Assembly (NCBI GenBank): GCA_000004985.1
Contig: GG738861.1
Length of the DNA: 64,000 bases
Source: Naegleria gruberi
Taxonomy: Eukaryota
Direction: 5' to 3' (one strand)
Shown here: piece by piece, positions 5,514-37,504 of the stretch
How the letters are laid out: each line of letters opens with the position of its first letter
Position numbering within the stretch: the stretch's first letter is position 1
The notes under the pieces: generated by a model
Databases searched by the model: none
Told to the model about the DNA's origin: nothing
What the model saw: only the letters and a program-made list of their open reading frames with translations
Program-made: the position numbers and the translations under genes

Positions 5514-6180
5514 ACTCTTTCTACTGGGAAGTGTGTACAGTGGCAAAACCTCAATTATTAAGAGATTTGTTTATAATCAGTTCACACAAGGTTATGAATC
5601 ACCTTCCTGTTTTTATGAAGAATTCAAACAAACAATTTCTATAGATCAAAGAGAAGAATCCATACTCTTAATAGATTCATTTGGGATCCTTAGTCGTTTC
5701 CTTCCATTTGAAGAACGTTATTATTGTAAAAAGATTAATTTCAATGTTTTGGTAATTGTTTGCTCAATGACGGAATATGAAAGTTTGCATGATTTGAAAC
5801 AAATATTGAGGAGATTTGTGGATGATAAGGGATTGAATGCTCCTTGTGTTGTGGCCATTAATAAGTGTGATCTTTTTCATCATTGTGTGGTTGATATAAG
5901 GGAGGTTAATGAAATTGTGGAAAATTTTGGATTGACTGATTATAAAATTATGGAGACGAGTGCAAAAACAGGAAAGAATATTGAAGAATTAGTGGAAGAA
6001 TGTGTTAGAAAGTTTAGAGAACGATTGAGAGATGTAAAAAGTGTTGTAGAACAAGTTCTGTTATTGGATCAAGAGGAGAAAGATGACAGAATGAGTATTT
6101 ACAAGATGGTGTTTATACCTCTTTGCTTTCTTTGGAATTTGATACTAAACTCGATTTTTCTCTGGAAGCTTAATGAATAG
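5473..6180 (+). CDS. divergent Ras-superfamily small GTPase
   Basis: G1 KLFLLGSVYSGKTS, G3 LLIDSFG (DxxG), G4 NKCD, G5 ETSAK. The frame is open from 5473 with no ATG before the listed GTG start at 5533, so the true 5' end is probably supplied by splicing. Ends TAG at 6180. Confidence 0.65.
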   Translation, partial: FEQEKNKSDSSEIKLFLLGSVYSGKTSIIKRFVYNQFTQGYESPSCFYEEFKQTISIDQREESILLIDSFGILSRFLPFEERYYCKKINFNVLVIVCSMTEYESLHDLKQILRRFVDDKGLNAPCVVAINKCDLFHHCVVDIREVNEIVENFGLTDYKIMETSAKTGKNIEELVEECVRKFRERLRDVKSVVEQVLLLDQEEKDDRMSIYKMVFIPLCFLWNLILNSIFLWKLNE

Positions 6181-6637
6181 AATCTCACCGACACGGAATT
6201 CACTAGACAAGTTTTCATTATTTTATGAAACAGAAAGGATAACCTTCTTAATGTTTCAAAAGATGCTAATCAAATAATTGGAAATGTTATAATCTATCAA
6301 CATTTCATTCTGTGGATCATCTTCTGAAATTCTGAATTGAATAGCAATGGAGCTTTGTTTAAAAGATAACTTGATAAGATTTGTTAATTAATTATAATTT
6401 ACAATTTTTCATGACTAACGTAATTCTCAACAATAACATACCAATTTGAAATTTGGTAAAACTGCAAATAGAATATTTTATTGGAAAGAAAAATAAAGGA
6501 GTCTAACCTTTGACTATTTTCTCGATGGAATTAGGAGATAAGGTTTTGAAAATTGGCAGATATGTTGATTACATACCAGTCTTCATATTATGAAAAAAAT
6601 TTTAAATTAAATAGTGAAGATAAAGTTAAAAATTAAT

Positions 6638-7092
6638 CTCGAGTGCCGGGAATTGAATTTCCTAATTTGGAAGATGACTTCAACAACCAAATAACAATAA
6701 TAAATTGGGTTATTAAATTAATGTTTATTAAATAGTGACCGTTAGGTCACTGATTGTTAATTAATTATTGATGATGATTTGTTGTTGAACAGATACTAAC
6801 CACCACCGATTGTTGTCATAATATTAAACACAGAGTAATCACCGTGTCGCCAAATTCCTTGATAATTATTCATAACTGTAACTTCTTGATCAAAAGGCAC
6901 TCGAGCAATAAACAATTTGATTTCACACAGCCAAAACTCTCGTTCATACTTTGGGTACCGGGAATGAAATTTCCAAATAAGGAATGACCGATATCATTCA
7001 ACTATTACTAACTCATACTCACACTAACAAAACAAATTGAACCCGGGTCGCCAGAGTGACAGTCTGGAATGCTACCACTATACCACACCCGA
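6638..7092 (-). pseudogene. tRNA-Asp(GUC) gene interrupted in the T-loop: 5' part 7092..7035 (nt 1-60), 3' part 6650..6638 (T-stem CCCGG + acceptor CACTCGA + discriminator G)
   Basis: Reverse complement of 7035..7092 is TCGGGTG TG GTAT AGTGGTA GCAT T CCAGA CTGTCAC TCTGG CGAC CCGGG TTCAATT (anticodon GTC). Reverse complement of 6638..6657 is TTCAATT CCCGG CACTCGA G. The acceptor halves pair 7/7 with one G·U, and the T-stem halves pair 5/5. The two parts are 377 bp apart. Confidence 0.75.
6658..7034. mobile_element. 377-bp non-coding insertion in the tRNA-Asp T-loop, flanked by 7-bp direct repeats AATTGAA (6651..6657 and 7035..7041)
   Basis: Left end TTTCCTAATTTGGAAG and right end ...CAACTATTACTAACTCATACTCACACTAACAAAACAA. 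Both ends are homologous to the ends of the 1,333-bp insertion at 23272..24604. It contains an internal second copy of the junction motif at 6951..6985. Confidence 0.55.
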
Positions 7093-8159
7093 TTTCATAT
7101 TAAGTGATAAATATTATTGAATATATAGACGTATTTTCAACAATTTTAAATAATTCTACCAACACCAATCCTGTGGTGAGATCCAGTTTCAAACCCTTTT
7201 AAAGGCATCCATTGCCCATCAGTAATTATAAACGAGTTGATCTCACAATAGTTCCTCGGACAATATTCCAATTTCCTTCAACACGTATTCTTCTTCCAAT
7301 CTCTCAAGCCTTTCCATAAATTGCAATACAATAATGATTCAGAAGTATGAATAAATTCAATAGTATCACATTTACATATAGTACATTTAGAACATGATCA
7401 GCACAGCCATTAGTTTCCCAAATTCCACTCTCTGAAAATCTTAAAGATTCAGTACTATCAGTCTCGTGTAGAAATTAACAAGAATACTGTGATAATTCAT
7501 TCACTCACAGAATTCAATTCAGTAGGTGAAAAGACAGGAAAGTTAATTTGATCTACCTTAAAATTGGTTTCCATCTTTGTCTAGAATATCACCTTAATTC
7601 ATTGAACAAGGGAATTTTCTAGAATATACATGTTAACTTTGCAAGAGCTTATTTCAAAAGATCAACTCTTGACACAAGTGGAAAATTAATCAACTCAAAT
7701 TAACAATGCTGTTCAATCACTGATGTCAAATATTAAAGGGTTCATCCCTATCCCCAATTACTATTCTCTTAAAATCACATAACTTTATCCAAAATGATTT
7801 CCAGTGTTTTCCCTTCTTCATTCCAGAATTAACTGAAGAAATATCATCCACTCAACTAATCATCTCAATAATACATGTGTTTATCTCAAATTATAATGTA
7901 AATATATCCACAGCACACAATGTTGCAACTTGAATTGATTGGAAGAGTAGAGTCACTTTGGGATGATTAAATTTGTTGTAGCCTCTCCACTAAATGTTAA
8001 ACCAACAACAACAATAATACCATCCAATGATAATCAACAATTGACGGCCCTCCAACTAGAAAGGGACAAGAAATAACGATGTGATATTACTATCAATATG
8101 TATGTGGTGGGAATTGTGTGAGCAGATGCAAGAATATTGTAGATGAAGGTTTTCTATTT

Positions 8160-9710
8160 TTTATCAAACTTGATGAATTTTTTCCATGTTGAAAATTACA
8201 GTAAGTTGTTAATTGCAATGTTTGCTGATTGTTTGCTCGTAATGTTTGATGATGTGTTGAATGAAAATAATGAAAAGTCATATTGTAAAGTTGTTCTTCT
8301 TCACTTGACTTTCCACATTTAAAAAATGACCTCTAAAATAGTTTTTTAAACTTCAATTTGACTTGCCATCAATCACATCAATCATTCTATCATTAATTTT
8401 TCATTTAAATATTTTTTTAACACACAAATCATCAATTAAAAATCAAAAAAAAACAAATCCATTCAAATTCTATAAAAATGTCATTCTGTGAAGACGTTCA
8501 AGCCCTCGTTGTCGATAACGGTTCTGGTATGTGTAAAGCTGGTTTTGCTGGTGATGATGCTCCAAGAGCTGTCTTCCCTTCAATTATTGGTAGACCAAAG
8601 CAAAAGTCCATTATGGTTGGTATGGGTAATAAGGATGCCTATGTTGGTGATGAAGCTCAATCCAAGAGAGGTATTTTAACTTTGAAGTATCCAATTGAAC
8701 ACGGTATTGTTACCAATTGGGATGATATGGAAAAGATCTGGCATCACACTTTCTACAATGAATTGAGAGTTGCTCCAGAAGAACATCCAGTCTTGTTGAC
8801 TGAAGCTCCTTTGAATCCAAAGGCCAATAGAGAAAAGATGACTCAAATTATGTTTGAAACTTTCTCAGTTCCAGCTATGTACGTCGCTATTCAAGCTGTC
8901 TTGTCCTTGTATGCTTCTGGTAGAACTACTGGTATTGTTTTGGACTCTGGTGATGGTGTTTCCCACACTGTTCCTATCTATGAAGGTTATGCTTTGCCAC
9001 ACGCCATCTTGAGATTGGATTTGGCTGGTCGTGATTTGACTGATTATTTGATGAAGATTTTGATGGAAAGAGGTTATTCATTCAATACTACTGCTGAAAG
9101 AGAAATTGTCAGAGATATTAAGGAAAAGCTCTGTTATATTGCTTTGGATTTCGAAGCTGAAATGAAGGTTGCTGCTGAATCATCATCAGTTGAAAAGTCA
9201 TACGAATTGCCAGATGGTAATGTTATCACTGTTGGTAACGAAAGATTCAGATGTCCAGAAGTCTTGTTCCAACCAAACTTCATTGGTATGGAAGCTGCTG
9301 GTGTTCATGAAACTACTTTCAACTCCATTGGTAAATGTGATATTGACATCAGAAAGGACTTGTACGGTAACGTTGTCTTGTCTGGTGGTACTACTATGTT
9401 CGAAGGTATTGCTGAAAGAATGACCAAGGAATTGACTGCTATGGCTCCTGCTTCAATGAAGATTAAGGTTGTTGCTCCACCTGAAAGAAAGTACTCTGTC
9501 TGGATTGGTGGTTCCATCTTGGCTTCATTGTCCACTTTCCAACAAATGTGGATCACAAAGGAAGAATATGAGGATGCCGGTCCAGGTATTGTTCACAGAA
9601 AGTGTTTCTAAATCTATTGATTTTGAAACAATTCAATTCTCCCAAACAAACAACAAAAACTTGTTTGTAATAAAACTATTATGTAAAATTAAAATCAATC
9701 TGAATACTTT
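8160..9710. repeat. arm B of the inverted actin duplication
   Basis: See arm A. The arms are separated by ~5.8 kb carrying 3073..6180 and the repeat-rich 6200..8100 region. Confidence 0.8.
8478..9611 (+). CDS. actin (copy B), protein identical to copy A
   Basis: Same 377-aa translation as 846..1979. Nucleotide sequence differs at a few synonymous sites (alternate-frame shadow ORFs 1034..1288 and 9169..9423 differ at 6 of 84 codons). Confidence 0.95.
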
Positions 9711-10004: not shown

Positions 10005-12138
10005 ATGAGCAAACAAGAATTGCAGGAAACCATTGAAAAATCAACTAGCAAGACTGCTGCTGATGAGAGCAGTTTTGAAGAGGAAGAACATGAGGATATC
10101 ACTGCAGATGAACAAGTATTGCAAGATTTTTACAAGAAGGAAGCTCAGATTAAACAAGCTACTAAACCAAAGGAAGAAAAGCCGGTTGCTGCTTCTACTT
10201 ATGAAGATCAGGGAGAAGGTGCACATATGATTGAAATGCCATTAGATAAAACTAAGCTTTCCAAGACTGATATTAGGTCATTGCACAAAGATGAAGTAAA
10301 ACAAGCTAGAAAGGAATTGGACAAGCTTCCGAAGCCTCAAACTTTCCCAAATCATGCTGAAATTAGTTTCTTTGGTGCTTCAGGTACTGTTACTGGTAGT
10401 AAGCACATGATTACTTATGGATCTTTGAATGCTTTGATTGATTGCGGAATGTATCAAGGTTTGAAGGAACTTAGGTATGTTTTTTAATTCTTTCATTTGT
10501 TTTAATTAGATTAATTATCAAAGAGAGAGAAACTGGAAATTAATTTCATCATCAAAACCTGTTGAAACAATGTGTGATGCCATCATTATTACTCACTCTC
10601 ACTTGGATCACACTGGTTATCTTCCAAGGTATGTTTTTTATACAATGTTTTGATACAAATGAAAATTAAAACTATCAAAAATCATCAATCGGAATGAATA
10701 ATTTAATCTTCAATCATCATAATAATATCAAAATAGAATGGTTGCTCTTGGATTTACTGGACCAATCTACATGACAGAACAAACATTTAATTTGACCAAA
10801 CTAATCTTGTTGGATTCTGCTCGTTTACAAGAAGAAGATGCTCACTATGCCAATCACAAAGAAACTACTAAACATGAGGTTGCCCTTCCACTCTATTCCG
10901 AAGAAGATGTTCTCAACTGTTTCAAGTTGGTGAGAACTGTCAAGTATGGAGAAAAAATTGTTGTTAAAAGTAGATTGGATGAAGACAAATTCAGCTTTAA
11001 ATACTTTAATGCAGGACACTTGTTGGGATCATCGTTTGTTGAAATTACTCTTGACACAAAGGAAAAGATTATCTTTTCAGGAGATTTGGGAACTTTCCAC
11101 ACCTCCACTCCAATGCAACAACAACCTCAATTACCAATGGGAGCTGATTATGTTATTTGTGAAGCTACTTATGGTGGCAAGTCACACATTGATTTTGCAA
11201 CTGGTAGAGCTGCTGAGGATCAAGATTACATTATTGAAACTAAGGTTAAACCAGCGTTGAAACAAGCTGTTGAACATATTGTGGAAAATGATGGTGTAAT
11301 TCTTATTCCAGCTTTTGCCATTGGTCGTTCTCAAACTATTGCTTATCACTTGTTAAAGATGATGAGAGAGAAGGAAATTCCAACACTTCCTGTCCACATG
11401 AACTCTCCAATGTCAGTTGAAGCTCTTGATTTTTATCAACAATATTTATTGGACGAACATCAAAAGGATGCACACGAAATTTTGAGAGATGTCATTTGCC
11501 ATAATAGTGCTAAGGAATCTAAGGAACTTCACAAAAAGCTCAAGGATGGTTATTCTAAATGTGTCATTATCAGTAGTAGTGGTATGATGACAGGTGGTCG
11601 TTGTTTATTCCACTTTGAAGAATTGGCTCCTCATGAAAAGAACGTTCTCTTATTGAGTGGTTTCCAAGCTGAAGGTACAAGAGGTAGAGACTTGCTTAAT
11701 GGTGTCAGAGATATCAAATTATTGGGCAAGACTGTCAATGTTAAATGCCAAGTCATGCAAGTCCAAGGTTTGTCTGCTCACGGTGATACTGATGATGTTA
11801 TTAAATGGATTGAGGCTGCCAAAAATCCAAAACCAAAGATGGTTTTCGTTGTCCACGGAGAACCAACCTCACTCCGTAGTATGGCTAGAGAAATTTGTGT
11901 TGAATTGGATGTTAATGCTCTCGTTCCAAAGAGAGGTACAACATTCCACATGAGAACTGAACTCTCCTTCAGTCACAGTAGAAGAGCTAGTGTTGTTTCA
12001 ACCAATAACAGTTTACAAGATGTCATTTCAAGCAATATGCCTGATATTCCAAAACTTGGAAAGACCAATATGGTTCACGTGATGTATGCTGGTATTATTT
12101 TAATTGCCTTTATTGCCTTCCTTTTAAGATTCTTTTAA
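10005..12138 (+). CDS. bacterial-type β-CASP metallo-β-lactamase-fold RNA-metabolising hydrolase with acidic N-terminal extension and C-terminal TM anchor; 3 exons (10005..10474, ~10524..10628, 10737..12138)
   Basis: FFGASGTVTGSKHMI...LIDCGMYQG and AIIITHSHLDHTGYLP (HxHxDH), split by introns GTATGT...AG (~49 nt) and GTATGT...AAATAG (10629..10736). Also FNAGHLLGSS, YVICEATYGG, LSAHGD and VHGEP β-CASP motifs. C-terminus has hydrophobic helix AGIILIAFIAFLL. Confidence 0.7.
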
Positions 12139-22782: not shown

Positions 22783-23271
22783 TTTATTGTCAATTTAACT
22801 CCAACATGTCCATATTCGCAATTCAAAATTCAAATGAGGTGAATGTGAGCCAAATTGGGGTAACAATTAATATTCATCTTTTTTGATCATTACTTAACTA
22901 TATTTGTACATAATAACCTGGGTTTAGAACTATGAGAATTGCGGAAGAGGTCCTCTTCATTGCTTGTACGATTATGTACAGTAATTGAGTTTGGGTACTG
23001 TCTTGTCCTTAATTAATTGATAAATTTTGCAAACAAATAAAATCGAATTCCAATTCTATTCTGGGTAGCCAAACTCACGCTGCATTACCCCAACTCTAAT
23101 ACTAATTGGTTTAAAAAAAATTAAAAATGACCCATTCTCAAAAAGAATTGGGATTAGAGGTAGTAATATTTGGATGGAAGATAGTAATTAATGTCTGGTT
23201 TTAGTGATAATCAAACAAAATGTAAAAGGAGGCTAAGAAAAGTAACTGGTTTGCGTCGACCGGGAATTGAA

Positions 23272-24604
23272 ATTTCCTTTTTTGGAATTCATTTAACTTT
23301 TAATTTTATGATGAAATTATGAATTATTTATTTTAATATTATTCATGATGTGAAACATCATGTTGAATTCTGTTCATTATTTTTAATTCATGATGTGAAA
23401 CATCATGTTGAATTATTAACAAATGTTGTTCTTCAATTTTTCATTGAATGTTGTTCTTTCAATGAATGTTGGAATAAGTGTCCAGTATATGATAGAATTG
23501 TTAATACAAGTAAGTTTTCTATTATTTTATATTTATTAATTGACTCACGGGTAATGGAATTTCCTTTTTTGTAAATCATCATGATTGATGATGATTGATG
23601 ATGATTAAATAATAATAATTTATTATTTTATAGATGATGGTACAATTAGATTTGTTAGTACATATCCTAATTGTATTTTAAAGAAAGAAAATTCACCAAC
23701 TAAAATTGAAGATATTATTCGTGAATATGAAGATGTAAAAGTTGTTTTAAATGAATTAGGTAAATCAACAACAAAAATTTATTCATCAGATACAACAAAA
23801 CATATGAATTTCCTAAAAGTTTTATTTATTTATGTAATGGTAATATTAAATATGATCAATCATTAAATATATCACAAGGAATTTATACAATTAAAATTCA
23901 AGATGATGAACATGATCACAAATATTATTATTTATTCGGAAGAGGTTTATTATTTCTATCAATTACATTACAAATGATTCCAACATTTAGTTTAAACAAG
24001 TATTATTATGAAATTGTATTGAATGATTTAAGTAACACATATTTTGATAAGAATGAAATTATTCAATATAAAATTGAAATTTTGCCATCAAATATTATTC
24101 AACAATATTCTAAACGAAAGTTTCTTGTTAGAAAAGATAGTCAAAAGAACTCAAGATTTATTACATATCAACCTGACGCTCAATCACCATCAAAGAAAAC
24201 AAAGAAGAATAACATTATTGAAAGTGATATTGAAGATTTCGATTGCAATATTAAAGATATTGATGATTGGGTATAGGGAAACGGAATTTCCTAATTGGGA
24301 ATGTCATCACACAATAAATTAAATTTATTATTTATTCATTGATGTTCACAAACTGTGAATTAACACATTACATGATGAAACAATTCAAACATTTACTCAA
24401 ACTTTAAACATTAACCATCGGGTAACGGATTTTAATACATGTACTAGTATGTTTATTAATTGGTCGACGCACATAAATTTAAATAAACAAAATTAACAAG
24501 ATTTTAAACAAAATCCTACATAGAGTTGGAGAACGGGAAATGAAATTCCCAAATTGAAATTGAGAAACAACTATTCATTTCACAATAATTCATACTATCA
24601 AAAT
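23272..24604. mobile_element. 1,333-bp insertion in the tRNA-Gly T-loop, flanked by 7-bp direct repeats AATTGAA (23265..23271 and 24605..24611); carries ORFs
   Basis: Left end ATTTCCTTTTTTGGAATTC and right end ...CAACTATTCATTTCACAATAATTCATACTATCAAAATG are homologous to the ends of the 377-bp insertion at 6658..7034. It contains internal junction-motif copies at 23541..23575, 24272..24300 and 24528..24560, and a 45-bp tandem duplication at 23341..23414. Confidence 0.55.
23608..24279 (+). CDS. insertion-internal ORFs (frame 23608..23848 overlapping frame 23764..24279), hypothetical protein with AT3-biased codons
   Basis: Two overlapping open frames (~80 and ~171 codons) that could be joined by one short intron or a frameshift. 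Leu is almost all TTA and Lys AAA, unlike host genes (TTG/AAG). There is a possible 3' splice site TTATTTTATAG at 23622..23633. No transposase or integrase motif is recognisable. Confidence 0.3.
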
Positions 24605-24969
24605 GAATTGAACCCGGGTCACGGCGATGGCAACGCCGTATTCTACCACTAAACCATCGACGCTTCTTGTTAAGATATTAAGGTTCCTTAATTTAATATA
24701 AGGAATATCCAAAATGCTTAAAGTACAACACAACAAGAATTGAGTATTCGTTTGAACATGCTGTAAAATATTTCAAATTATGCTAAGATCATTTGATGTA
24801 TTTAATGCCATAGGGCATTGAGAGCCATCATTTGAAGATTCAAATAGTATGTTCTTGATTTTATCTGATAAAGCACAAGAATAACATTTCATCCACTAAA
24901 TTTTATAAATGTTGACTGTGTTACATAATAGTATTTAATTATTATTGAAATGAGGATAACAATAAATTA

Positions 24970-32394: not shown

Positions 32395-34355
32395 ATGAAC
32401 AAACGACATCTAGCTGTAGAAATTCTAAACGATCAGTTCGGAGACATTATTGGCAAGGTTGGTTCTGTTCTTTTAGAACAAGGACCTCAGACCATGACGG
32501 ATTTGATTCAAAATACATCATTGCAATTTCCTCAAGTCAGAAATGCTCTCCTTGTTTTAATTCAACACAACATGTGTGTCTATTTTGACAAGAATATATA
32601 TCAACAAAAATTAGAACATGGATCAAAGAATGCGGAAGAGGAAGATGACATGAAAACACAAACAGAAAAATTGAGAGAACAAGAGGAAAGGAGAGAAAAG
32701 TGGAAGCATAAAGGTGGAGGTAATGATACAGCACCAGTCACTGTACCTATTGAGGAAGAAGAATCGGAACAAATTAAAGCAGAAAAACAAAAACAATTCG
32801 AAAGACAAAGCAAAATTATTTATTATCAAGTAATCATTGAAAATATTATTATGAGGTTGAAGAGTGCCAAGTTATTATATACCATTAGGACAAGTTATGG
32901 TATTGATGCAGAAGAATTGTTGCACATTCTCTTACAACACGGCAGATTGACAATGAAGGAATTAATTCAAAAAGCTTTGGAAAATATTACACAAACAGGT
33001 AGGTTTTACCCAAATATTTTGAGTGTATTGAATACTGTTATTGTTTATTTAATCTATTATTATTGTTAATTAATATTACTTTTAAACTCGGAATAACCCA
33101 CTCTCAATTTTATTAATTTTTATTATTATTATATTATTATTATCATAATAATAATATTTAAAAAGATTATACATTTGCCACTGAAAGTAAAAAGACATCC
33201 TTCATCACTGCCTTCCAAAAGATGGTCAAGGACAGATTTATCAAGAGAGTTCAGCCATATGTTTCATCCATTCAACTTCAAGAACAAAAGAAAAATGCAA
33301 AGGAAGGAGGATCAAACTCTACAACAGATTTACTTCAAAAGTACTCCAAACAAAACAAGGAATCTAAAAAGAAATCGGACAAGTCAAAGAAGAGAAAGAC
33401 AATTGAAGATGAAGATGGCAGCTCTCAATATGAACCTGAAAAGAAAAAGAAGAAGGGAACAAGTTCAGAAATTTCACCACTCGAATTTGACACTGAAGAA
33501 TTTGATTCAATTGATGAAGATGAAATTCATATTGATGCTGAAAATATTTTGTGGACTACCAATTACTCACAATTTATCAGAACTTTCAGAAATGAATCCA
33601 TCATTAAATATGTTGAAACCAAGATGGGAGAACAATTTGCATCCATTGTTAAAGCTGCCTTTGATGAAACTGCACCATATCAAAGATCTAAGAATGATCC
33701 AATGTCAACACCACTCAAATTTGAAAAATTATATGATAGAATATCAGAAACTGAGGAAATTGGTAGAAAGGTATTGGAAAATAACTTGAGTTTCCTCTGT
33801 AATCCAGAATTGGATATTTTGAGAGCTATGGGTAAGGACACTTATTTCATTAATTTGAAAGGTGTTGCCGATAAACTCAAAAAGCAAGAAACTGAAGTCA
33901 TCATTTCACAAAAATACAGTGTGATTGGATGTAGATTATTCAGATTATTGCTTGAAAAGAAGTATTTGGAACAGACTCATATTGCCGAATGTGCACTTTT
34001 ACCACCTTGTGAAGCTAGAACTCTATTGATGAACATGTTGAGAGGCTCCATCCTTCATTTACAAGAAGTACCTAAGAGTAAGGATCGTAGCGCTCAACAA
34101 ACCTTCTTCCTGTGGAGTGTCAAGTTGGAACAAGTTTATGAAAAGATTATCGATGACATGTACAAATCTGTAAGAAATTTGAGAATTAGATTAAAGAAAG
34201 AACAACAACATATAATTGAATCAGGCATTCTCGAAAGCACCTATTTGAGTGAAGAACAAGAAGAACAAATCAGACGATTGAAAAACATTGAAGACAGATT
34301 AGAAGCCTCTCTCATCAAACTAGTTGACCTCATTACTTTATTCGAAGATTTTTAA
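32395..34355 (+). CDS. RNA polymerase III subunit RPC82/RPC3-like; 2 exons (32395..32998, 33166..34355)
   Basis: N-terminal winged-helix region FGDIIGKVGSVLLEQGPQTMTDLIQNTSL...VRNALLVLIQHNM and LLQHGRLTMKELIQKALENI resemble Rpc82. Intron GTAGGT...AAAAAG of 167 nt keeps the frame into 33166. Confidence 0.55.
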
Positions 34356-37233: not shown

Positions 37234-37504
37234 AAAAGATTGTAAATAAATATCGACTTTTTCAACTTTCCAATACTAAAACCCAACAGGTTGGCACCTT
37301 ATCAGTCAACTAGCCTCAGACAAACAAAGTGGAGAAAATCAAAAAGACAAAAGACTACAGCACCACAGGTTCCCAAGTTGTCTCCAACCTCAGTACTGAT
37401 GTGGCTCGACGATGCTTAACTTCTCAAATCGGACGGGATGAGGTGCATTCATCGTGATATGGCCGTAGCCATTCATAACCCTAAAACAATGAATGTAAAG
37501 AATA

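Follow-up and report, generated by a model that had tools for sequence, protein, structure and literature searches.

The mobile elements closest in behaviour to the sequences described here appear to be those of the Dada superfamily, which insert at fixed sites within transfer RNA (tRNA), small nuclear RNA or 5S genes, give rise to duplications of 6–7 bp and are without terminal inverted repeats (PMC3706591, PMC8869645). Their short sub-terminal inverted repeats match their own target gene, and one member, Dada-tL_DR, duplicates the sequence GCGTTCA (PMC3706591). Non-autonomous deletion derivatives occupy the same sites, and the tRNA fragments that flank a copy are sometimes mismatched (PMC3706591, PMC8869645). 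In autonomous copies there is a gene for a DDE transposase that has a DxxH motif and zinc fingers. Here we describe a tRNA-Asp(GUC) gene of Naegleria gruberi NEG-M that is split in its T-loop by 377 bp of foreign sequence, within a 64-kb stretch of DNA of ~33% G+C (hereafter the window). We put at roughly one half (0.5) the probability that this gene copy was interrupted by a small non-coding, non-autonomous mobile element, one of an N. gruberi family fixed on the T-loop of a shared T-arm. The tRNA-Asp locus contains the following parts.

7035..7092 (-): tRNA-Asp(GUC) 5′ part, nt 1–58, comprising the acceptor 5′ strand, D arm, anticodon arm, variable loop, T-stem 5′ strand and entire T-loop; read from 7092 to 7035 it is TCGGGTG T GGTATAGTGGTAGCAT T CCAGA CTGTCAC TCTGG CGAC CCGGG TTCAATT
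7035..7041 (-): left T-loop heptamer, TTCAATT
6658..7034 (-): insert, 377 bp, 32% G+C
7029..7032 (-): TTTT at +3..+6 of the insert, a probable RNA polymerase III (Pol III) terminator; the insert in tRNA-Gly, described below, has the same feature
6638..6657 (-): tRNA-Asp 3′ part, with the right TTCAATT (6657..6651), T-stem 3′ strand CCCGG, acceptor 3′ strand CACTCGA and discriminator G
6628..6632 (-): T5 after the 3′ part, the Pol III terminator of the original tRNA-Asp gene

An initial annotation, made from the letters of the window, had placed the two parts of this gene at 7092..7035 and 6657..6638 on the minus strand, 377 bp apart, and both the coordinates and the sequences are borne out. 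The two halves pair as it had claimed, 7/7 in the acceptor stem with one G4·U69 wobble and 5/5 in the T-stem, and TTCAATT is indeed found at both junctions. Upon removal of 6658..7034, ARAGORN calls a 71-nt tRNA-Asp(gtc), the native sequence being uncalled. Because ARAGORN is permissive here, also accepting a construct with a broken T-arm and a truncated tRNA-Gly gene, direct inspection of base pairs was preferred over its calls. The pattern TTCAATTYYYGGYRYYYGR, which denotes the heptamer plus any sequence that could pair with the 5′ strands of the T-stem and acceptor stem, has a single occurrence in the 64 kb, at 6639-6657(-), and none in 100 shuffles; the complementarity is better than chance, and a chance origin of the halves is ruled out. 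The far 3′ part is not the sole possible partner of the 5′ part, since a degenerate 3′ part at 6968..6951, when joined to it, is also called as tRNA-Asp. The interruption lies in the T-loop, in agreement with the earlier view that it is not a canonical intron at position 37/38.

A second gene, ~17 kb from the first, is interrupted at the identical T-loop position, with TTCAATT at both ends. It lies within a ‘tRNA-Gly(GCC)’ that ARAGORN calls at 24593-24664 (-) and that is not intact, its final 13 nt being insert and not T-stem and acceptor; the Rfam tRNA model at its gathering score does not list this interval. The parts of the tRNA-Gly locus are these.

24606..24663 (-): tRNA-Gly(GCC) 5′ part, nt 1–58, ending ...GACCCGGG-TTCAATT and directly followed by the non-tRNA sequence CATTTTGATAGTATGAA...
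23272..24605 (-): insert, 1334 bp, its 5′ end homologous to that of the tRNA-Asp insert
24550..24526, 24291..24267 and 23564..23538 (-): three internal modules, each an element 3′ end with a pseudo-3′ part of a tRNA
23252..23271 (-): tRNA-Gly 3′ part, TTCAATT CCCGG TCGACGC A

At this locus the duplicated repeat reads 8 nt, TTCAATTC. The joined tRNA-Gly halves are identical at 71/71 positions to an uninterrupted tRNA-Gly(GCC) with one heptamer, found at 207-277 of a JGI metagenome contig (L004) from a Naegleria-like organism, and the outer halves match this intact gene at 78/78 positions. L004 was the one useful contig from a DNA pattern scan of metagenomes; the same kind of scan gave two chance matches in a viral collection and none in prokaryotic genomes. 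The contig also carries an intact tRNA-Ile(AAU) at 47-119, on the same strand as the tRNA-Gly(GCC) and 87 bp from it. The target T-arm, GACCCGGG-TTCAATT-CCCGG, is common to tRNA-Asp(GUC) and tRNA-Gly(GCC); the sequence shared by the two genes reads GACCCGGGTTCAATTCCCGG. The intact tRNA-Lys of the window has a different T-arm. Two different tRNA genes that carry the same foreign sequence at one nucleotide position, while an unoccupied copy of the target also exists, bear the signature of a mobile element with a specific target. The suggestion of a site-specific insertion is accordingly strengthened by the tRNA-Gly(GCC) cut at the same nucleotide, with homologous insert ends and the same flanking heptamers, and by the uninterrupted relative with its single heptamer.

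The two inserts are related at their ends. Their first ~100 nt are 72% identical (E=7e-7) and their last ~40 nt 78–89%; both begin NNTTTTG.TAGT...TATGA and end TTCC-N6-GGAAA(T), from which we define a conserved element 5′ end, YRTTTTGWTAGT..TATGA, and a conserved 3′ end, TTCC-N6-GGAAA[T]. The 3′-end motif occurs six times in the 64 kb, confined to the tRNA-Asp and tRNA-Gly loci. Terminal inverted repeats are absent: comparison of the first 40 nt with the reverse complement of the last 40 nt gives a score of 6 against a null of 5.6, and the score is at the shuffle mean in each of three units (3/3). Outside the two loci neither insert matches other sequence of the window, and the 377 bp has no second copy elsewhere in it. 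The open reading frames (ORFs) within the inserts are short and without Pfam match, on which ground a coding function was rejected, and a group I intron or other known RNA is likewise ruled out, as Rfam gives nothing above noise in 6300-7400.

The interior of the tRNA-Asp insert is less simple than its ends, with the following parts in order from the left junction.

6969..7034 (-): unit X, a 66-bp miniature whose 5′ end TGTTTTGTTAGTGTGAGTATGA... is fused to a 3′-end-type motif, TTCC-N6-GGAAAT; homologous to the first ~85 nt of the tRNA-Gly insert
6951..6968 (-): degenerate tRNA 3′ part, TTCATT CCCGG TACCCAA, 66 bp after the tRNA-Asp 5′ part
~45 nt after the degenerate 3′ part: spacer with a T4 run
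6896..6906 (-): 11-mer GCTCGAGTGCC, following the spacer
6842..6852 (-): TGGCGACACGG, a weak Asp-specific match (10/11, p=0.076) to the variable loop and T-stem 5′ strand
6735..6750 (-): perfect 6-bp hairpin, GTGACC-TAAC-GGTCAC
6658..6701 (-): conserved element 3′ end, finishing in TTCCAAATTAGGAAA and resembling three element 3′ ends at the tRNA-Gly locus

The 377 bp is therefore a composite in which a 66-bp and a ~175-bp element copy flank decayed tRNA-Asp-like pieces, and the earlier picture of a single simple element bounded by one target-site duplication does not hold. The degenerate 3′ part pairs with the tRNA-Asp 5′ acceptor strand at 6/7 positions, a G4-C69 pair replacing the G·U, and resembles the real right junction well past the tRNA (score 31, shuffles 18 ± 2.6). 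TGGCGACACGG is followed by a stretch weakly resembling the element 5′ end and then by the ~175 bp that finishes in the conserved 3′ end. The first ~320 bp of the tRNA-Gly insert has the same order of parts, after which come two more modules of 3′ end and pseudo-3′ part. Because the 377 bp is composite, its left and right heptamers may stem from different events or from a composite element. The split is real and the idea of an insertion substantially right; the insert is more complex than first described. As a side observation, the hairpin at 6735-6750 gives weak, chance-level Rfam matches to bacterial small RNAs that contain terminators.

Such a composite might have arisen (a) from two tandem tRNA-Asp copies, each of which was hit, or (b) from two neighbouring element copies that later moved as one, carrying tRNA pieces between them. 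Tandem arrangements of this kind are relevant to the first route, since closely spaced tRNA genes exist in the lineage, as L004 shows. Neither origin accounts for intact outer halves beside inner halves that are largely unrecognisable. The tandem tRNA-like fragments also invite an explanation with no mobile element at all, in which tRNA genes were duplicated in tandem, underwent unequal exchange and decayed, all locally, and the heptamer repeat arose incidentally; a weak resemblance of the flank upstream of the 5′ part to sequence downstream of the 3′ part (E=0.05) fits this explanation. We regard it as very improbable. It gives no reason to expect two different tRNA genes, 17 kb from each other, to carry one non-tRNA sequence at an identical position, and neutral decay after a single duplication does not leave the outer halves intact and the inner ones heavily decayed.

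The heptamer repeat, described in the initial annotation as a 7-bp target-site duplication, is present as stated; its assignment to a staggered cut is one reading, and the core of a site-specific recombinase fits equally well. A circular element with an attP-like site (..AGGAAA-TTCAATT-..) could have recombined with the tRNA T-arm, the heptamer being the crossover core rather than a fill-in duplication, and the internal modules of GGAAAT followed by T-loop-like and CCCGG-like sequence being extra att-type sites from serial integrations or rearrangements. In keeping with this, the identical 7-nt core is flanked by the inverted repeat of the T-stem (CCGGG / CCCGG), and six att-like modules have the form TTCC-N6-GGAA-N6/7-TTCC. 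In archaea and bacteria, elements that encode a recombinase are known to integrate into tRNA genes, and this has been suggested as one origin of disrupted tRNAs (PMC3293823).

Sequence from a related strain bears on this point. The ENA metagenome ERZ929261 holds a strain 95–98% identical to the window, of which one contig (L009) spans part of the interior of the tRNA-Gly insert, with few differences over 24377..24180 as judged from the alignment. At 388-494 this contig has an extra, inverted ~107-nt copy, 79% identical, of the module of element 3′ end and pseudo-3′ part, placed directly after an 11-mer of the tRNA-Gly insert that is described below, and it is without the ~600 bp between modules that holds most of the ORF EFC45740. 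An added inverted module and a loss between modules are rearrangements of the sort expected of a recombinase acting on these sites. In view of the extra module and the ~600-bp loss, the interior of the tRNA-Gly insert is structurally unstable, and EFC45740 does not appear to be a conserved gene. This ‘predicted protein’ (23974-24276 (+)) lies inside the tRNA-Gly insert on the opposite strand; among 1.84 billion representatives it has one homologue apart from itself, a 44-aa fragment. It is unlikely to be a transposase or a conserved gene.

Recombination of the integrase type nevertheless seems unlikely to us. No recombinase gene was found in the window, in the inserts or in the neighbouring ORFs scanned; the reconstructed attP arms (AGGAAA / TGTTTT) are, by inspection, weakly symmetric; and in classical tRNA integration the gene is restored by a 3′ part that the element brings along, right after the core, whereas here 66 bp of element lies between the 5′ part and the pseudo-3′ part at both loci. 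The integrase islands of bacteria and archaea (pNOB8-type; the Caldiarchaeum model, PMC3293823) resemble the present loci in the use of a tRNA arm as attachment site, in a short core at both junctions, in scattered tRNA fragments and in a structure that varies between close strains. The loci here differ in that they lie in a eukaryotic nuclear genome with no integrase gene in the window, leave the tRNA unrestored at the left junction and hold elements of hundreds of bp.

A further contig of the related strain, L007, is orthologous to the tRNA-Gly region and carries its 5′ junction, ending inside the element. The tRNA half and the first 23 nt of the insert are identical at 81/81 positions, and the flank has 6 substitutions and several indels in ~300 nt. 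Because L007 has the same 5′ junction, the tRNA-Gly insertion must predate the split between the strains, and no presence/absence polymorphism is seen at this locus between the window and L007.

Within each insert, 129 nt (tRNA-Asp) and 134 nt (tRNA-Gly) from the 5′ junction, lies an 11-mer complementary to the cognate tRNA. GCTCGAGTGCC (6906..6896) is the exact inverse complement of tRNA-Asp positions 64-73 plus C74, and GTGCGTCGACC (24472..24462) is complementary to the tRNA-Gly 3′ end plus C74; the base that matches C74 is not encoded in the genomic flank of either gene. Matches of at least 10 nt were obtained in 10/5000 and 3/5000 shuffles. A decayed 5′ acceptor strand would account for 7/11 positions, and the remaining four at each locus would not follow from it. 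Dada elements likewise carry short repeats that match their target, and a primer-binding site or fold-back repair are alternatives to such a role. The 10-nt inverted repeat that these sequences form at the tRNA-Asp locus (6905..6638) might be taken to mark the ends of a miniature inverted-repeat element; this was ruled out, the repeat being tRNA-derived, locus-specific and without a flanking duplication.

With the 11-mer as primer-binding site and the purine run before the right junction as polypurine tract, the inserts might derive from a retroelement that uses its cognate tRNA as primer or recombines through it, and that would have integrated into the primer-tRNA gene via hybrid complementary DNA (cDNA) and homology. 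Neurospora mitochondrial retroplasmids integrate via hybrid cDNA and homology. The perfect match of an 11-mer, as complement, to positions 64-74 of its own tRNA at each of two loci, the extra G matching C74, which neither genomic flank explains, and the purine-rich 3′ ends AGGAAA and AAAAAAGGAAA are all as such a retroelement would have them. The idea is doubtful on several counts. There are no long terminal repeats, as ~30 nt is all that the first 129 nt has in common with the end portion of the insert, and the inserts hold no reverse transcriptase. The complement ends at 11 nt, without a proper TGG; the argument from C74 concerns one nucleotide at each of two loci; and the tRNA-Gly 11-mer has a C>T change in the related strain. 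The LTR-type features observed are the primer-site-like 11-mer and the purine-rich 3′ ends only, and an LTR or terminal-repeat-in-miniature structure is ruled out, terminal direct repeats being absent beyond ~30 nt.

Returning to insertion of a target-specific mobile element, the proposed mechanism can be outlined by analogy with Dada. An enzyme encoded elsewhere in the genome would recognise the T-arm, make cuts in the two strands that are staggered by 7 nt and flank the T-loop heptamer, and join the element ends, and repair of the gaps would duplicate TTCAATT. The insert would split the B box, and Pol III would be expected to stop at the TTTT 3–6 nt into the insert, such that short RNAs would end ...GGGUUCAAUUUGUUUU. 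The tRNA-Asp copy would then yield no tRNA-Asp, leaving the cell dependent on intact paralogues. The tRNA-Asp insert has two further T4 runs, and many T-runs are present in the tRNA-Gly insert as judged by reading the sequence; all six Pol III genes inspected (6/6) end in T4-T5 within 15 nt. The Pol III termination rules applied here to Naegleria are presumed ones. The TTTT only 3 nt into the insert argues against read-through, so the tRNA-Asp gene copy is probably dead, and the inactivation presumed in the initial annotation is plausible.

Inactivation would not follow if the insert were a very long non-canonical intron, or if the halves were joined in trans. Through their self-complementary AATT the two heptamers can pair into a bulge-helix-bulge, on which the tRNA splicing endonuclease would act. 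The motif can be drawn at both loci, with the T-stem as outer helix, TTC as each 3-nt bulge and AATT/AATT as a 4-bp central helix; in this predicted fold, cuts in both bulges followed by ligation would restore a perfect T-loop, and the exons of both loci join to a canonical cloverleaf. At the tRNA-Asp locus a fold with this structure enforced has practically the same energy as the minimum free energy fold (-18.4 vs -18.6 kcal/mol). The contrast of intact outer halves with decayed inner tRNA-like pieces, and of the 81/81 identity across the tRNA-Gly 5′ half and junction with its diverged flank, is also what a functional intron would lead one to expect. There is precedent in archaeal introns at 53/54, 56/57 and 59/60 and in T-arm introns of nucleomorphs and Cyanidioschyzon (PMC4090602).

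A functional intron is possible but unlikely. The T4 at +3..+6 of both inserts, and the further T runs, stand against it, every Pol III gene inspected ending at T4-T5, and the inserts measure 377 and 1334 nt compared with 6–133 nt for eukaryotic tRNA introns (PMC4090602). In the best enforced tRNA-Asp fold the second bulge faces 3 unpaired nt, forming a 3x3 internal loop and a relaxed motif; at the tRNA-Gly locus the motif has -17.4 against a minimum of -20.6, a cost of 3.2 kcal/mol; and 0/81 changes is only weakly unlikely at the rate of the flank. Since the motif follows automatically from duplication of TTCAATT, it is no evidence of selection. The loci resemble the bulge-helix-bulge introns ascribed to ‘intron transposition’ in archaea, nucleomorphs and Cyanidioschyzon merolae (PMC4090602) in the T-loop interruption, the perfect cloverleaf upon joining, the drawable junction motif and the related intervening sequences in different tRNAs. 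They differ in inserts 3–10x longer than any eukaryotic tRNA intron cited, in Pol III terminator-like T runs and in the relaxed junction motif.

Comparison with Dada is in keeping with insertion of a target-specific mobile element. Both occupy one fixed site in multicopy small-RNA genes, which in Dada include those for tRNA-Asp, Gly and Leu and here those for tRNA-Asp and Gly. The 6–7 bp duplications of Dada have a likely counterpart in TTCAATT, present at both loci and in single copy in the intact tRNA-Gly, on the assumption that it originated by fill-in. Terminal inverted repeats are absent from both. The target-matching inverted repeats of Dada may have a counterpart in the 11-nt target-cognate inverted copy of each insert, although its position does not fit. 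The elements described here differ in that their ends show no sequence similarity to Dada ends and in being tiny (66 to ~175 bp), with pseudo-3′ tRNA parts. In the features tested the element behaves like Dada, which would make Dada the closest known kind; membership itself is unproven. Site-specific non-LTR retrotransposons (R2 etc.; cited in PMC3706591) are also similar in that they strictly target a conserved site within a multicopy RNA gene, keep their 3′ end conserved and have short derivatives that are non-autonomous. Here, by contrast, a poly(A) or simple-repeat tail is absent, the window has no reverse transcriptase, and the 5′ end is conserved, not variably truncated.

Several observations weigh against our preferred reading of a Dada-like insertion. 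The complement of the target is located 129–134 nt inside the insert and is not sub-terminal, the target copy lying 3 nt from the heptamer, and no second arm of the 11-nt inverted copy was found inside the element. The window contains no Dada-like transposase (tblastn with three Dada transposases, best E=0.42). The 2013 Dada survey (Kojima & Jurka, PMC3706591) is without a Naegleria family, and Dada has not been reported from Heterolobosea; the literature searched likewise holds no report of T-loop insertions or of Dada in Naegleria. The 7-bp identity suits a recombinase core equally well, and neither the internal pseudo-3′ parts nor the combination of intact outer with decayed inner halves is predicted by simple cut-and-paste. 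The tRNA-Gly 5′ junction is common to a strain whose flank is 2–5% diverged, so that mobility is something we infer rather than observe. Finally, an empty allele of the tRNA-Asp locus was not found in the related strain, where contigs L002 and L003 stop short or diverge at 6144. L003 departs from the window there, just before the end of a Ras-family ORF (5533-6180), and its following 305 bp (632-936) is unmatched in the window; one frame of this segment is helix-turn-helix-like by eye, with no Pfam match.

The split tRNA-Asp gene is found within a unique ~5.9-kb segment between the arms of a ~1.6-kb inverted duplication (747-2306 vs 8164-9710, 98% identical) that carries two actin genes with identical 377-aa proteins and 26 nt differences; a third 377-aa ORF (33222-34355) was ruled out as actin. 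Exact matches to window proteins are GenBank EFC45734, EFC45735, EFC45736 (actin), EFC45740 and EFC45850-45853, from a scaffold of 507 kb, and the published repeat content of the N. gruberi genome is ~5% (PMC6125883). In addition, the window holds a 5S rRNA gene at 37352-37470 (-) (Rfam, 105 bits), dispersed among protein-coding genes, and two ORFs at 10005-10487 and 10738-12138 (+), which by eye resemble two parts of one metallo-beta-lactamase-fold gene, the ~250-bp gap presumably being an intron; the translation of 10738-12138 is absent as such from the protein collection, as are trial gene models for the gene beside the tRNA-Gly 3′ part.

Two of the three tRNA loci in the window are disrupted and ARAGORN reports one of these as an intact tRNA-Gly, on account of which tRNA gene counts in Naegleria may be inflated or distorted. 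Genome-wide confirmation of the family would make it the first mobile element with T-loop specificity to be described from a heterolobosean, and it would then enlarge the small set of DNA-level elements that target the interiors of tRNA genes, for which Dada is the only superfamily in the literature searched. The finding also bears on how tRNA genes gain non-canonical introns or become split, given that a plain insertion that duplicates 7 nt of a partly palindromic loop provides the junction geometry of the splicing endonuclease at no extra cost. Its importance would increase greatly should the 11-mer turn out to serve in targeting or priming, or should joining of the halves occur in vivo. A bolder proposal, which we hold to be improbable, is that the elements form a eukaryotic tRNA-gene-specific family in which the 11-mer, as guide or primer, sets the target, a change in it retargets the element, and duplication of the heptamer, with its self-complementary AATT, builds a bulge-helix-bulge and with it a disrupted tRNA that can be spliced or joined in trans. 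If true, this would be a living example of non-canonical tRNA introns, and of split and permuted tRNAs, arising from mobile DNA.

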